From Ascidiella aspersa (taxonomy: Eukaryota): DNA of 64,000 nucleotides. The notes beneath the pieces were generated by a model. It saw only the letters and a program-made list of their open reading frames with translations, had not been told where the DNA came from and made no database searches. The stretch spans positions 25,792,001 to 25,856,000 of the forward strand of contig OZ004610.1 in assembly GCA_963924565.1 (NCBI GenBank). Direction: 5' to 3'. Of this stretch, positions 4,901 through 31,900 are shown one piece after another; the stretch's first letter is position 1, and the number at the start of each line of letters is the position of its first letter. A program made the translations under genes and the position numbers.

Positions 4901-7900
4901 AGTTCCAGGCAAGTCATTCGAAAAATAACGTTAGTCCAAGTCACCACTTTTGCCAAAATAACAAGTCCCAGCCCAAGTCAGGTCACTTTGAGAGCAAGAT
5001 TTCATGTCATTGACATAAATCTAAAACGGTTTAACAAAAAAAAATGTAAACCCGTCCGATTATGAGCAATAATTAAAAAAAAATAACAAAATTGCAATAT
5101 ACAGCAAGCAAATTTTCAGCTGAAACATTTGTGACAAATAACTTAATTTTATTGAATATTTTTAAACAAAACTTTAATTTGAACTCGGCCAAGCTATTTG
5201 ACATAATGACCTATAGGTCCAAGTGAAGTCATTTGTCCGAAAGACTCAAGTATAGTCAAGTAATTTTGGTCAAAGTACCTAAGTAATGTCATATCACTTA
5301 AAAACAGTGACTTAAGTTAAGTCACAGCATTCAATCTTGAATAAGATATACTGACGATGCCTTAGTTGGCGAAATATATACATATCTTTTAAGATCTGGT
5401 TAATGTATCTGACCTGAATTGCTAGCTTTGCTAGATTATTTTGCTGTTACTGATCAGGAATTAAGGTCGACATTTATCTTGCAAGGGTCAAGGTGATTTC
5501 TATTATTCACATATTCAGTGCAACATTAAGTCAAGTCCTTAGAACACTGGTTTATGGCGTCGCACATTGATTGCGGTTCTAAACTCATTTGCAGTACCGT
5601 AATGTTTGTGCACCGAAAATAATATCACCTGACGTGTGCATTCAAAATCACGGTTAAAAAAAGAAACTGCAGCAATCAATTTTGATTTTTAGTTATAAAT
5701 AAACAAATAAAAGGCGTCGCAAGAAAAAAAGTTTGAGAATTATTTTACCATAAATAATAGAAAATATCCGATAATATCGAATCGGATACCCGATACCATA
5801 GTAGTATTGCTACCCATACAATACTATAGGTGGTATCTGAACCGATTCAATATCAATGTTAACATAATATTTTCTATTCAAATATTAATGTTAATAAATG
5901 TTGATATAAATATTTTTCTTTTCAATCAATGTTAACATAATATTTTCTATTCAAATATTAATGTTAATAAATGTTGATATAAATATTTTTCTTTTCAATC
6001 AATGTTAATATAATATTTTCTATTCAAATATTAATGTTAATAAATGTTGATATAAATATTTTTCTTTTCAATCAATGTTAATATAATATTTTCTATTCAA
6101 ATATTAATGTTAATAAATGTTGATATAAATATTTTTCTTTTCAATCAATGTTAACATAATATTTTCTATTCAAATATTAATGTTAATAAATGTTGATATA
6201 AATATTTTTCTTTTCAATCAATGTTAATATAATATTTTCTATTCAAATACCAAACGATTCAATACCAATGCTAATACAATATTTTTTAAGTTAGTATAGG
6301 TTAACAACTTGGGGTATCTAGACATTTTTTAGGTAAAAGCAAAAATTTTATTATAACCTGGAAAACTTTAACTACGAACGTTTCATTTGACTAACGCTGC
6401 TGGTTTAAGCAAAGTAATGACGTCATTTAGTATCAGACCGGGTCTCGATACATTTTTTATCAAAACATCGGGTATCGTTATCGGAACAAAATCTCAAGTA
6501 TCGAACATCCCTATTAGGTAATATGCTCTTCAATTGCAAACACTCACATGGTGTTAGGGCGAGCAGCAGCGAAATAAGCCAAACGGCCGCGATCTCGGCG
6601 TATACCACCTTGCGGCTTTGTTGCTGGTATTTCAGCGGCCACTTGACGGCGTAAAAGCGCTGCTGGGCCAGCAAGGCCAGGTGGTAGAGTGACGAACCGA
6701 AGACAAGTAGGTGATAGATGCCAGCCACTTTAGCCCTCGAAGTGTCGTGTAAAGCCAGGATGTAAAGCCAAGTGTCGTATACAGACATGCGCGAAGAATT
6801 GGCGAACTCCGGCAGGGCGACGAAGAAAATCATCAGACCTGGAAACAGACTTGGACAATTATAGACAATTCTCGTTTTGTAACTCAACGATTTCGAGCAA
6901 AATGCGATCGATATTTGTGTTATAGCACATTTTTTTCTAAAGATTTACGATTTGCCCCTGAAACCAATTTCGCCGTTAAATGTAGTTTTGTTAAAAGATC
7001 AAAAAGCGGTGTTGATATGTTTTTCATCCTAAATACACCATGATATGTTTTTGATCCTAATACAAACATTTTGTTCAATTTTATAGTTTTAGCTAAAAAT
7101 TATAGTAGGAGAGAATTTCGTAAATATACCATCGAAGTGTTGTTCATAGCAGTGACAAATTTTCTACAGATATAAAACAATAAACATATAATTAACTAAA
7201 GGGCAGAAACTATTTCTGCGTTGTGGCATTTCGCTAAACACGCCACGATATTGCTGATCAAAACAAAATTACAAGCCCAGTAACAACTAATAATATTTAC
7301 AATCATTAATGCAAGCTTTTATGATTTTGTAAATGAATAAAGAGTTGGTCGAAATGTCATATATGTTATTAACTTCCATATGGTCTTTAAAATTTCTACT
7401 ATACGTCTAACTACAACCTCCAACCATTATGATTCAAAGTAAATTTTAGATGAGGTTATCAACTGTGTAATTTCTCCAAGATAATTGCGGACTTAGCACC
7501 AAGCAAGCGCCAGTCCTTTTAGAAACGAGAATCTCCTACAAATTATAGAAGCACAATTTGCGTTTAAACCTGTAAGCACGTCAGCCACGGCCAGGGACAC
7601 TTTAATCGTGCCGTAACTGCCGGTAAAGTTGGAGTGTCCGGTAGCAAAGAGACATATCACCAGCGAATTGCCCACAACGATAGTCAGGGCGATAAGGGCG
7701 ATGACGACGACGAAGGCGACACCGCCGACCATGCTGCATTCGGCGCAATATCGCAATGGCGTGTGAAGGCAGTTCTGCTCGGTAAGGCGTCCGCAGAACA
7801 CGTTAAAAGTAGTCTGGTTGGAGAGGGTAAACCCAGTAACGCTTGGGTTCACAGCAGCAGCTGTGCTTTGGGCTAAATTCCCGACAAGCTCTTGCAACAG

Positions 7901-12984: not shown

Positions 12985-15900
12985 TAGTGATGTCCGATAA
13001 TAACGAATTGGTTTTGATACCAGATACAAAGTGTCAGTATCGGCACTCGTCCGGTACTACATTTTATCGGAGCGATGCGATACCAAAGATATAAAATGAC
13101 TTCAGCCATTATTAGTTATTTAACGCAGTGATTTGTAGTTTAAAAGGTAAATTTACCAAAACACAGTGGGACAACTATCTATAGGTAACAGTATCAGCAC
13201 TCGTCCGGTACTACATTTTATCGGAGCGATGCGATACCAAAGATATAAAATGACTTCAGCCATTATTAGTTATTTAACGCAGTGATTTGTAGTTTAAAAG
13301 GTAAATTTACCAAAACACAGTGGGACAACTATCTATAGGTAACAGTATCAGCACTCGTCCGGTACTACATTTTATCGGAGCGATGCGATACCAAAGATAT
13401 AAAATGACCTCAGCCATGATTAGTTATTTAACGCAGTGATTTGTAGTTTAAAAGGTAAATTTACCAAAACACAGTGGGACAACTATCTATAGGTAACAGT
13501 ATCGGCACTCGTCCGGTACTACATTTTATCGGAGCGATGCGATACCAAAGATATAAAATGACTTCAGCCATTATTAGTTATTTAACGCAGTGATTTGTAG
13601 TTTAAAAGGTAAATTTACCAAAACACAGTGGGACAACTATCTATAGGTAACAGTATCGGCACTCGTCCGGTACTACATTTTATCGGAGCGATGCGATACC
13701 AAAGATATAAAATGACTTCAGCCATTATTAGTTATTTAACGCAGTGATTTGTAGTTTAAAAGGTAAATTTACCAAAACACAGTGGGACAACTATCTATAG
13801 GTAACAGTATCAGCACTCGTCCGGTACTACATTTTATCGGAGCGATGCGATACCAAAGATATAAAATGACTTCAGCCATTATTAGTTATTTAACGCAGTG
13901 ATTTGTAGTTTAAAAGGTAAATTTACCAAAACACAGTGGGACAACTATCTATAGGTAACAGTATCAGCACTCGTCCGGTACTACATTTTATCGGAGCGAT
14001 GCGATACCAAAGATATAAAATGACTTCAGCCATTATTAGTTATTTAACGCAGTGATTTGTAGTTTAAAAGGTAAATTTACCAAAACACAGTGGGACAACT
14101 ATCTATAGGTAACAGTATCAGCACTCGTCCGGTACTACATTTTATCGGAGCGATGCGATACCAAAGATATAAAATGACTTCAGCCATTATTAGTTATTTA
14201 ACGCAGTGATTTGTAGTTTAAAAGGTAAATTTACCAAAACACAGTGGGACAACTATCTATAGGTAACAGTATCAGCACTCGTCCGGTACTACATTTTATC
14301 GGAGCGATGCGATACCAAAGATATAAAATGACTTCAGCCATTATTAGTTATTTAACGCAGTGATTTGTAGTTTAAAAGGTAAATTTACCAAAACACAGTG
14401 GGACAACTATCTATAGGTAACAGTATCGGCACTCGTCCGGTACTACATTTTATCGGAGCGATGCGATACCAAAGATATAAAATGACTTCAGCCATTATTA
14501 GTTATTTAACGCAGTGATTTGTAGTTTAAAAGGTAAATTTACCAAAACACAGTGGGACAACTATCTATAGGTAACAGTATCGGCACTCGTCCGGTACTAC
14601 ATTTTATCGGAGCGATGCGATACCAAAGATATAAAATGACTTCAGCCATTATTAGTTATTTAACGCAGTGATTTGTAGTTTAAAAGGTAAATTTACCAAA
14701 ACACAGTGGGACAACTATCTATAGGTAACAGTATCAGCACTCGTCCGGTACTACATTTTATCGGAGCGATGTGATACCAAAGATATAAAATGACCTCAGC
14801 CATTATTAGTTATTTAACGCAGTGATTTGTAGTTTAAAAGGTAAATTTACCAAAACACAGTGGGACAACTATCTCTAGGTAACAGTATCGGCACTCGTCC
14901 GGTACTACATTTTATCGGAGCGATGTGATACCAAAGATATAAAATGACCTCAGCCATGATTAGTTATTTAACGCAGTGATTTGTAGTTTAAAAGGTAAAT
15001 TTACCAAAACACAGTGGGACAACTATCTATAGGTAACAGTATCAGCACTCGTCCGGTACTACATTTTATCGGAGCGATGCGATACCAAAGATATAAAATG
15101 ACTTCAGCCATTATTAGTTATTTAACGCAGTGATTTGTAGTTTAAAAGGTAAATTTACCAAAACACAGTGGGACAACTATCTCTAGGTAACAGTATCGGC
15201 ACTCGTCCGGTACTACATTTTATCGGAGCGATGCGATACCAAAGATATAAAATGACTTCAGCCATTATTAGTTATTTAACGCAGTGATTTGTAGTTTAAA
15301 AGGTAAATTTACCAAAACACAGTGGGACAACTATCTATAGGTAACAGTATCGGCACTCGTCCGGTACTACATTTTATCGGAGCGATGCGATACCAAAGAT
15401 ATAAAATGACTTCAGCCATTATTAGTTATTTAACGCAGTGATTTGTAGTTTAAAAGGTAAATTTACCAAAACACAGTGGGACAACTATCTATAGGTAACA
15501 GTATCAGCACTCGTCCGGTACTACATTTTATCGGAGCGATGTGATACCAAAGATATAAAATGACCTCAGCCATTATTAGTTATTTAACGCAGTGATTTGT
15601 AGTTTAAAAGGTAAATTTACCAAAACACAGTGGGACAACTATCTCTAGGTAACAGTATCGGCACTCGTCCGGTACTACATTTTATCGGAGCGATGTGATA
15701 CCAAAGATATAAAATGACCTCAGCCATGATTAGTTATTTAACGCAGTGATTTGTAGTTTAAAAGGTAAATTTACCAAAACACAGTGGGACAACTATCTAT
15801 AGGTAACAGTATCAGCACTCGTCCGGTACTACATTTTATCGGAGCGATGCGATACCAAAGATATAAAATGACTTCAGCCATTATTAGTTATTTAACGCAG

Positions 15901-16321
15901 TGATTTGTAGTTTAAAAGGTAAATTTACCAAAACACAGTGGGACAACTATCTATAGGTAACAGTATCAGCACTCGTCCGGTACTACATTTTATCGGAGCG
16001 ATGTGATACCAAAGATATAAAATGACTTCAGCCATTATTAGTTATTTAACGCAGTGATTTCTAGTTTAAAAGGTAAATTTACCAAACCACAGTGGGACAA
16101 CTATCTATAGGTAACTGAACATTTCAAACGCTCAACAAAATTTTGCCTATATAATCCCGTCAAAAATACTATTGGACTTTTTAAATTTTTTAAATTTGCT
16201 TATTTGATAAATATGCTTTATTTGACTAAAGGAGTTTTTTGGTATCCGATGGAATTAGAATACGTTTGCTATAAAATATATCGGTATCAAAATGAAATGT
16301 CAAGTATAGCGAACATTCCTA
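12985..16321. mobile_element. MITE (TAGGGATGTCCGAT family) expanded by the 154-bp array
   Basis: Left end TAGTGATGTCCGATAAT and right end AAGTATAGCGAACATTCCTA match the shorter copies at 52271-52638 and 31826-32220. Confidence 0.8.
13035..16114. repeat. Tandem array, 20 x 154 bp
   Basis: Unit CAGTATC(G/A)GCACTCGTCCGG...CTATCTATAGGTAA with period 154; 3080 bp equals exactly 20 units. Only a few variable sites. Confidence 0.98.
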
Positions 16322-28984: not shown

Positions 28985-31900
28985 CTAGATCGGCACGTCA
29001 AACTGGCGACTGGGCGTCGGCTTGCGCGCTAGTATGTCAAACCATGATTTAAGCATGAACAGGCAAGTAAGCGCGCTAAGAGCGGATCCAGCCCAGCCCA
29101 GTCCGAACGACCAGCTGTAGCCGAAAGTCATGAGCGCAGTCACCGTATCACCAAACTCTGTGGCGTTCATCGTGCGCTGTAGTTTAGAGGTCTCCGACAC
29201 CTCAACTTGCAGGCCTAGGTGGAAGCGGGACAGCTCATCAACCCAATCGGAACTGGTCCTGCTCTTGGCCTCGTACAACCGTGGGTTTTGCACCAGACCG
29301 GTCTGCGTCGCCGTGTAAGTTATCATTCCGGCCAGCATGAGAACGCCTGTCGAACAAAACAAAAGGTTGGTTTTGTTGCCACTACGGTAATTACTGTTGT
29401 GTTAAACCATTTCCAATAAAATGGCCGTATACAGGTTAAACCATGTACAGTACTGAAAGTTGAAAACAAAGTCCGACTCTACCACTTGTGTGCCATACCC
29501 TGGATAAAAGTTATTTTTTAAAACACAATTACTAATAGGAAAGGAGATGATTTTTCGAACATAAAAGAGCAATTGTCATATAAAAAAAAAAAAAAAAAAA
29601 ACAATTTTGACTTATAAATACTTATTTTAAAATATCACAATACGTTGCGTCCGCTTGGCTAAGTTTTACATATGGTTATTAGCGAAACAACTGTCATTGA
29701 TAAATTTAAAATGTCAGTTTATAAAATAAAATAAAAAGAAGGGGTAAAAGTGGAAAATTTTTCTTTGCTTGGACAAATATTTTACCGTAACGCATAATTT
29801 TTTTTACAAATGACGCCATAAAGTCACATAATCCCTGGTTGTCTACAACAAGCACCTTATAGTATTGGGGTTATCGTTCGATGTAAGGCACTATTCTTTA
29901 ACTCAAATCTCACTTTCAACCCATTCAAGAAGATGGCTGGATGCCTGTTAAAAACAGGACACAGTATGGTAAAAAATAACACTTTAGTTTACCAGGGTAT
30001 ACCTAAAGGTAAACCTAAGGTTACTTCTTTATAACGCTAAGATGTATCTTGTGACGTAACGTTTCGACGTTTACGTTTTGACGTCATTTCCGATGAAAAT
30101 CATGTCCCTCACCAAAATTAAAATCCTGCATTCGCGCTTGACCCTTACCTTGGCCCCCCACTATACTTACAAGCGGCAAGATAGCAGCTACAACCCGTCA
30201 CAATGGCCAGTAGGCAGCCCTTGGACACTTGGCCCTGGTTGCTTAGAGCAGGATAGATGGTCAGACCAACGGCGATGGCAAGCAAGGCCAGGGCTCCGAT
30301 GAGGATTCCAGTAACGCAGTCAGAGTAGAAATCACCTGCGATGCAAAACAAACGTTTTCCATGCCAAATACTGCCAAAAGTTTTCTTCGGTGTGACCGTG
30401 CTTGGAAACAAGAGTGCCGTTTTTTGTAAGTAATATGCTGTAAATTGTCTATTTTTAGGTACACATGCGCGGAAGGATCTGTAATGTAGCGTAATAATCA
30501 TCAATGTCGAAGCCAAACAGGTGGTTTCAACCACCATCGATGACGCCAAGGGAATTCTTGGCAAGCCTCTCCTGGTGCTTGCAATATGCGGAGGAACAGC
30601 AGCGGGAGGCATTCTCATTATGCTAAGTGCCTGTTACGCGTGGAGACACTTTCGTGCTATAGGAACAATACTGCATATTTACGCGGAATGCCAAGTTTAA
30701 AGTGATTTTTTTTAGGAGGGAGGGAGGGAGGGATGTTACGTGCTTAATTAGCACTACAAAATTATCACCGGTAGCTAATTATGCCGACTGTAAATTCTAA
30801 GATTCATTTCTACAAATCTTACGATCGTTTATCGCTTGTGTCACGCAATGGTTTAACTTCTCACGAAAAGGTCCACCCATTGTAATCTTTCCACGAAACG
30901 GATGCCCTGTAAGTTAGGCCTCGGGTTCTCGGGAGCGCGTCGGTTCCCGTGAGAGAGAGTTTTTGTTTAGCGTATATTATGAGCGACCAGCCGCCTAGAG
31001 AGTAGTAGACGTTTGGGTGTAGCCTTGTGAAATTAGCGAGTAAAACTTTAGGTGTTATATGCTCTGTCATTCGGTTGCTTGTAAGTAATTGTGTGTGAAT
31101 AATTGTCATTATTGTTTGTGGTGTGGTTATATTCTACTCTTTAATATAAACTCTCTTTGGTAAGTTATTTAATTAAGGACTCACTAGCGGTTTTAACAGA
31201 AGGCCTAGGTAATTTTCTTAAATTACTAGTTAAACTCGTAACATTGCGATACAAAAACATTTTACCGATGATGATATCATGATACAAGTGCGTATTGAAA
31301 CGTCTTCATCAAGATTATGTCGAATTATTACTCGACCTATTTGGCTTTGAAATTTATTATTGCCTATTTTTAGTTCGTGTTTTCAACTTTTACTCGGTTG
31401 GTGTCGGCGTCGATACCAAATTAATTAGTACAATTTAGCCATAATTGCCATCCAACGCAACATTTTTAATACTTCATTTTTATTTTTAGATAAAAGTGAC
31501 TTAATAATCGAAAGTTAAGAATACAATTTTCACAGTTTCACAATGTGGACATATTCCGATATTGCACGTATTGATTCCAAAAATTTCGTTATTTTGCTGC
31601 AGTAATTTCGGCGGTGATTTTTGGCTAACCGTCGGGTATTTACATCGAAATAAAATACGAAGTATCGTGCATCCCATTTTTAACGGAAAGCAGATTTTAG
31701 CACCAAAACTCGGGACACAGCAAAAAAAATCGGAATGTTAGATTACCCTAACATCTCTGTCGACGTTAGTCCAAGCACAACTCAAATCACGAAAGACCTT
31801 GTAGACTTCCCTATTGGTCCTAGCTCGGAGTGTCCAAAAATATCGGATCGGTGCCGATACCTCATATCAAGTGGCAGTATCTCTACTTGTCCGATGCTAT

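Follow-up and report, generated by a model that had tools for sequence, protein, structure and literature searches.

What kind of element left a long terminal repeat (LTR) and a membrane-spanning reading frame side by side in an intron of the ascidian Ascidiella aspersa, and did it encode an envelope protein? The locus lies in a stretch of 64,000 nucleotides (contig OZ004610.1, positions 25,792,001 to 25,856,000), referred to as the window, and the plain coordinates below are positions in it. An initial annotation, made from the letters alone, had read the locus as the trace of a possibly env-bearing, retrovirus-like lineage. This reading is supported by our analysis and is correct in substance; the infectiousness of the lineage is something we infer. 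We consider it highly probable that what remains in the window is the 3′ stub (env anchor, polypurine tract and LTR), no longer functional, of a member of a Ty3/gypsy family. Besides gag and pol, complete copies of this family have a gene for a small membrane protein and an envelope-like gene whose product is likely a furin-activated class I fusogen.

The remnant in the window

The locus comprises the following features:

30148..30335, minus strand: host exon, putatively the third of a weakly claudin/PMP22-like gene, with AG acceptor-like and GT donor-like sites; the retroelement is antisense in the intron upstream of this exon
30452..30522, plus strand: one arm of an unrelated short dispersed repeat (alignment; 81% match to loci L054/L039)
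30518..30658, plus strand: 3′ end of env, with the membrane-proximal helix, the transmembrane anchor and the start of the cytoplasmic tail (47 codons, Env residues 708-754; alignment to the full Env, P0001)
30659..30713, plus strand: rest of the env tail, frameshifted in the window copy, and a short U-rich spacer (aligned with three sister copies)
30714..30733, plus strand: polypurine tract (PPT) of 20 nt, longer than in the sister copies (from the sequence; same position in six of six two-LTR copies)
30734..31243, plus strand: 3′ LTR of 510 bp, TGTTACG…CGTAACA, with two internal deletions compared with the ~712-bp subfamily A LTR (genomic copies)
31279..31361, minus strand: second arm of the same short repeat in opposite orientation, 35 nt past the LTR (87% match to L054)

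The 71-codon plus-strand frame described at 30485-30700 is present and stop-free with its hydrophobic stretch; next come, also as described, a stop codon at 30698-30700, a spacer of 13 nt and a purine tract of 20 nt at 30714-30733. Of this frame, env accounts for 30518-30658 only, and the initial 11 codons are part of a different short repeat; in alignments with sister copies, homology to the retroelement begins at 30518, and 36 of the 47 residues encoded up to 30658 (77%) are identical to residues 708-754 of P0001. What had been taken for a short cytoplasmic tail is not the tail of the family, as a frameshift near 30660 replaces the natural one. The LTR indeed starts with TGTTACG at 30734, but extends to 31243 instead of the internal TAACA at 31198, an end backed by all 28 end-to-end resolved loci among 30 LTR loci. 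It has a 7-bp terminal inverted repeat, and the two internal deletions leave it ~200 bp shorter than the family LTR. At least 40 loci, the window included, match its body at 78-100%, confirming that the LTR has other genomic copies, and the sequence upstream of it matches eight other loci. The stub shares 89-90% nucleotide identity with two subfamily A copies, and by sequence the window element belongs to subfamily A. The stub itself is ordinary decayed DNA whose coding capacity is gone.

The antisense, intronic position of the remnant was correctly recognized, while the claudin-like nature of the host gene is weak: one of four exon frames, on the exon next to 30148..30335, matches Pfam Claudin_2 with E=0.0068, below the cut-off. 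The remnant begins 181 nt from the acceptor-like AG at 30336-30337, and not about 120 bp from the splice acceptor as first stated. Elsewhere in the window, near-perfect tandem arrays occupy 13035-16106 (154-bp period, about 20 copies) and 5779-6322 (73-bp period).

A young Ty3/gypsy family with four genes

Full-length copies with two LTRs exist, and inspection of them for gag-pol and a further frame yielded gag, pol, ORF3 and env. The complete element measures ~10.9 kb and is ordered LTR-PBS(tRNA-Met)-gag-pol-1.1 kb spacer-ORF3-env-PPT-LTR. In these copies the frame before the PPT is neither integrase nor non-coding DNA and codes for a 768-aa Env-like membrane protein. The 599-codon gag frame contains a CCHC knuckle (Pfam zf-CCHC), and pol lies in the -1 frame, overlapping the end of gag, where A AAA AAC precedes the stop; we take this heptamer to be a -1 slippery pattern. 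Pfam domains of Pol follow the order protease, RVT_1, RT_RNaseH, Integrase_H2C2 and rve, with the reverse transcriptase (RT) motif YIDD (P0003), and env starts 31 nt past ORF3. Programmed read-through in the integrase was considered and rejected, the stop of one copy being absent from six of six other copies checked.

Two subfamilies, A and B, are distinguished by their LTRs, and the youngest copies are B. The LTR pairs are identical in three of the six two-LTR copies (805/805, 811/811 and 804/804 aligned bases); the remaining pairs agree at 809/814, 647/648 and 678/702 aligned bases, the last, with 24 differences, being the A copy. Target duplications flanking these copies are 5 bp long in five cases and 4 bp in one. 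Insertions of the family are very recent, and the subfamily B copies are very young. As a lineage the family is more than a fossil, and low-level RNA reads of it are also found. All four genes are open in one of the six two-LTR copies, and stops, frameshifts or deletions mark the other five; gag and pol are wholly absent from one of the six and from a further copy. At G000:C1:40877617-40882132 and C2:35872519-35877330, the 5′ LTR is joined almost directly to ORF3 and env without gag or pol; such copies may have arisen by deletion or by retro-copying of subgenomic env mRNAs. A stop-free Env match of 758-768 aa occurs at five loci.

The PBS lies 4-5 nt past the LTR. It has 10 nt in common with the 3′ end of host tRNA genes that form an array, and ARAGORN calls six of nine of these genes Met(CAT); in the search for the tRNA 3′ end, the exact pattern had no match and a mismatch-tolerant pattern did. 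The A-type PBS is a 12/12 complement of the Met_CAU end given in the tunicate-inclusive table of the eLife survey of errantiviruses (PMC13524379, as far as its table is accessible). The long tandem tRNA array (L123, G000:C1:26.98-27.01 Mb) has a period of ~154 bp and units with Met, Val or Thr anticodons on apparently one tRNA body; the pattern has 324 matches genome-wide. Because none of them has a PBS or PPT, the 27 other end-to-end resolved loci outside the window are solo LTRs. A 5-bp target duplication flanks 12 of these 27, and 4 bp several others. Eight solo LTRs (L007, L008, L009, L012, L014, L015, L018 and L020) share identical flanks and therefore represent one insertion multiplied within a larger repeat; these eight sit near contig ends. 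A third, more divergent family (G000:C5:24.605-24.612 Mb, C5:24.65 Mb and C3:23.267 Mb) shows about 65% Pol and 40-49% Env identity and the same Env type, with no ORF3 match in the copy examined.

The best solved relative of Pol is the Ty3 Gag-Pol with 226 bits, followed among non-Ty3 entries by an 'enzymatic polyprotein' (156) and 'Pr125Pol' (77). Even the best relatives of Pol in the database reach only about 35% identity, and a quick RT tree, built without an outgroup from 60 of 120 listed matches, gives the lineage a long branch within the Ty3/gypsy-type Pols. The element has the features of Metaviridae (Ty3/gypsy), namely paired TG…CA LTRs, PBS, PPT, a target duplication within 4-6 bp, a CCHC knuckle in gag, the order PR-RT-RNaseH-IN and YxDD, and its RT groups with Ty3/gypsy on the strength of Ty3 as best PDB match by a wide margin. 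Judged by these sequence features, the element is a Ty3/gypsy LTR retrotransposon. With gag, pol and an env-like ORF between LTRs in multiple copies, it also corresponds to an errantivirus in the operational sense of Chary and Hayashi. An affiliation with BEL/Pao, mentioned in the initial annotation, does not hold, as Pol matches Pfam families of the Ty3 type and the structure of Ty3. Kuafuorterviruses, described in the accessible text as carrying IADD/VADD/LADD instead of YxDD and as mostly 5-6 kb long (PMC11673190), were likewise rejected for an element with YIDD and about 10.9 kb. Lokiretroviruses (PMC7947760) and Odin (PMC9040795), LTR elements of aquatic animals, are characterized in the parts available by a tether and a second RNase H, and the Loki Env by RXKR, a fusion peptide, a coiled coil, an anchor and a PF00523 match. 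Unlike these, the present element has one Ty3-type RNase H, located between RT and the integrase zinc finger, and its Env does not match PF00523.

In 6% of one RNA run, 318 reads fell on a subfamily B copy, at a low depth of about 1-7x, with about 2-8x given for env. About 84% of the env reads run in one direction, which is the sense direction if the library is conventionally stranded; the gag-region reads lean the opposite way. Of the reads on this copy, 45% run on into unlike sequence, and no splice joint was seen among them. These reads are weak evidence for transcription of the family and are silent on the stub.

Env and ORF3

Hydropathy and a motif scan divide the 768-aa Env into a hydrophobic N-terminus or signal peptide (residues 3-21), a 430-aa surface part, the furin-type site RQKR (447-450), a fusion-peptide-like stretch (450-470) and an anchor (717-749); the protein has 13 N-glycosylation sequons. 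The furin site sought in the last frame is thus present, and this class I fusogen layout of signal peptide, furin site, adjacent fusion peptide and C-terminal anchor is common to the homologs. A full HMMER scan of 1.84 billion proteins retrieved eight of these, one being 42% and the others 23-31% identical to Env over the matched stretches. The motif [RK]-x-K-R followed by a hydrophobic stretch is found in seven of the eight, the last having a variant site by alignment, and in the seven homologs that have an anchor, the anchor lies 267-294 residues past the cleavage site. The homologs also share two Cys before the cleavage site and, in those that include the N-terminal part, the motif G-K/R-Y-Y/W…C-x-C there. 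As measured in six proteins, the surface part spans 408-533 aa and holds 7-10 Cys. A word-seeded protein search with either the single Env or the alignment as query found no relative, and scans of viral contigs with two Env homologs gave no match.

Structure prediction gave two low-confidence AlphaFold models (mean pLDDT 35, from the single sequence, and 44). In both, the part past the cleavage site is almost wholly helical, with 266 predicted helical residues. The second model places helices at 462-588 and 595-660 (pLDDT about 45-70; modest heptad signal) and has some confidence at residues 64-108 and 396-443. A Foldseek comparison of the Env model with BFVD yielded no match at E<=0.001, which for a low-confidence model is no sign of a new fold; VIA-align likewise returned only generic coiled coils (Z<8) for it, and NCBIfam only coiled-coil noise. 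Env has no match in the PDB, its profile matches to HA2 being non-significant (E>=0.74). By ESM features, Env came closest to coronavirus spike and haemagglutinin (0.90-0.92, a signal that the tool itself rates as weak), with a recognition value of 1380, below the trust level.

The env frame is constrained. Pairwise comparison of a subfamily A with a B copy, which includes decay after insertion, gave dN/dS values for env of 0.15 and 0.20 (the A copy has two env frames), 0.16 (0.05-0.43) for the window stub and 0.15 for gag; ORF3 has 0.24 (0.16-0.36). By these sequence comparisons, env and ORF3 are under purifying selection. On its layout and the predicted helical subunit, Env is likely a virus-style, furin-activated class I membrane-fusion protein, bearing in mind that genes other than env can also encode hydrophobic stretches, furin sites and coiled coils, as stated in the accessible text of a study of bdelloid LTR elements (PMC5408684).

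Could Env instead be a highly diverged F-type protein, like the F proteins of paramyxoviruses and baculoviruses, and the family one more errantivirus of the kind of Oikopleura Tor? We regard this as unlikely, though it is the alternative that deserves most weight. F-type Envs likewise possess a signal peptide, a furin site, a fusion peptide, a coiled coil and an anchor, and all six appendicularian elements in the eLife table are ENV_F (PMC13524379, accessible part). According to the available text on Viro3D, one conserved core is found across very divergent class I proteins, some of them with long N-terminal extensions (PMC12583693), and the sequence tools used here are less sensitive than HHpred. 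Against an F-type assignment, Env matches no Pfam family at E<=1 and none of the eight homologs matches a fusogen family at E<=0.5. Genome searches with Baculo_F and Fusion_gly were also without match, the positive controls being equally silent. Six of six proteins measured combine the large surface part with a post-cleavage subunit of 266-294 aa that has 0-2 Cys and no N-[LV]-G, whereas the Env of Tor3b/4b is described, in the text available, with seven conserved Cys, N-[LV]-G, F-X-G upstream of the anchor and cleavage products of 60-65 kDa (PMC4402516). P0001 has two Cys and neither motif; in the corresponding test of five Env homologs, we counted 0-2 Cys, N-[LV]-G in none and F-x-G in two. 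Moreover, no beta domains are predicted past the fusion peptide in the second, low-confidence model. Tor3a Env is described as different from that of Tor3b/4b (PMC4402516, accessible text), to which the motif comparison applies. Env may still match Tor3a or, the models being too poor to tell, have a remote F or gB fold.

ORF3 codes for 208 aa with an N-terminal hydrophobic stretch, 17 Cys, the motif WTLWSEWS, an anchor (165-199) and a short basic tail, and is near full length and stop-free at ten loci. Pfam returned nothing significant; the ESM features of ORF3 suggest thrombospondin type-1 repeats (0.86-0.90), which we treat as no more than a lead. From its sequence, ORF3 is possibly a Cys-rich, thrombospondin-like membrane protein.

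Origin of the stub and a proposed life cycle

The plus-strand repeat arm meets the env stub at the 5-nt shared sequence 30518-30522, which is likely a deletion junction. In the course of events that we propose, the window copy would have inserted antisense into the host intron and then lost the 5′ LTR, gag, pol, ORF3 and >90% of env, probably by a deletion ending at this microhomology with the neighbouring repeat. The repeat is short and of high copy number, its two oppositely oriented arms (30452-30522 and 31279-31361) flank the stub, and a related locus, L054, lies near G000:C8:4587600; DNA depth is very high in the bin of the arm at 31279-31361. An improbable alternative is that this repeat, possibly Penelope-like, brought the stub along by template switching, or that the stub now serves the host gene. 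The stub does sit between two arms of one repeat and joins the left arm at five shared bases, and neither a 5′ LTR nor an upstream target duplication was found in the window. Genome searches, however, revealed the repeat-env junction at no second locus, and Rfam gave no hammerhead match for the flanking repeat. As for a host function, the stub is frameshifted and its LTR deleted, and the host exons have no reads in the one RNA run.

For intact copies of the Ty3/gypsy family, we propose that the 5′ LTR drives transcription, that a -1 frameshift at A AAA AAC at the gag end would give Gag-Pol, that tRNA-Met would prime reverse transcription and that integration would create the 5-bp, sometimes 4-bp, duplication. 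The mRNA for ORF3 and env may arise by splicing or from an internal promoter; the 1.1-kb spacer recalls that of Tor4b. Cleavage at RQKR would split Env into the 430-aa surface subunit and a 35-kDa helical fusion subunit, and the membrane protein ORF3 might serve in attachment or have an accessory role. On the model of Tor (PMC4402516) and Drosophila errantiviruses (PMC13524379), as far as the accessible parts of both articles describe them, cleaved Env could let particles pass from somatic cells to the germline.

Least probable is a last ORF that is a captured host or viral membrane protein with a non-fusion role (adhesion, budding or receptor blocking) in a strictly intracellular element: Env is without fold or family match, the L088 homolog stands alone and bdelloid LTR elements carry non-env third ORFs (PMC5408684, accessible text), but the furin site, the adjoining hydrophobic peptide and the fixed anchor distance are kept across proteins only ~20% identical, and the ORF is in the env position under the same selection as gag. 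The L088 homolog is an intact 990-aa protein on a metagenome contig (Ga0210059_1003464, L088:10001-12973) with an extra N-terminal part that has its own membrane stretch; no gag, pol or LTR pair was found within about 10 kb upstream and 8 kb downstream. Its cluster has eight members from ENA, JGI and Logan, and it is a candidate for a co-opted envelope gene of a marine organism.

Envelope-bearing relatives and significance

Late cleavage also occurs in the retroviral SU-TM, influenza HA1-HA2 and filovirus GP1-GP2 class I fusogens, whose fusion subunit ectodomain is generally shorter than the 266-294 aa found here. Env resembles their layout in its large surface subunit, furin site, N-terminal fusion peptide, helical ectodomain and C-terminal anchor; unlike them, it has no significant sequence or fold match and lacks CX6CC.

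Ty3/gypsy errantiviruses with an env gene have been described from across the animals, with tunicates among them (Chary and Hayashi, eLife, PMC13524379). In its accessible portions, this largest survey requires HHpred support for inclusion, sorts all Envs as F-type or HSV/gB-type (in the tunicate rows, nine ascidian elements all gB-type and six appendicularian elements all F-type) and argues for an ancient acquisition of Env (PMC13524379). With these errantiviruses, as described there, our family shares the arrangement LTR-gag-pol-env-LTR, the Ty3/gypsy pol, multiple recent copies, a tunicate host and the tRNA-Met type of PBS. It differs in the extra membrane ORF between pol and env and in an Env that by Pfam or layout matches neither F nor gB. 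Five short motifs from our family were absent from the eLife supplements, a weak result given that these are mostly tables with cut cells. An Env without database match could have been dropped by the pipeline of the survey.

The Tor elements of Oikopleura dioica are gypsy-like and encode a furin-cleaved glycoprotein Env, with a pol-env spacer containing an internal promoter in Tor4b (PMC4402516, accessible text). Our family is alike in being a gypsy-like element with a furin-type glycoprotein Env in a tunicate and in having a pol-env spacer, and unlike Tor in its fourth ORF, none being described in the text available. In the openly accessible literature, neither a late-cleaved Env of this kind nor a thrombospondin-like ORF in an LTR element was found. 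Tunicate gypsy elements with an env gene are already known, and the chance that this family carries an undescribed envelope class is fair.

We tentatively put forward, at somewhat less than even confidence, that the family represents a third, independently acquired class of Ty3/gypsy Env. Such an Env would be a class I fusogen in the SU-TM style of retroviruses and haemagglutinin, paired with an accessory membrane protein that resembles thrombospondin. The lineage carrying it would still be mobile in an invertebrate chordate and has a long branch in the RT tree, and a related envelope has perhaps become a host gene of some other marine animal. The four-gene layout of the family resembles that of a complex retrovirus or an attachment-plus-fusion pair. 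If this proposal is true, a late-cleaved Env with an all-helical fusion subunit and no database match would mark another origin of gypsy envelopes and, given the probable invertebrate-chordate host, would bear on the origin of the SU-TM envelope design of vertebrate retroviruses.
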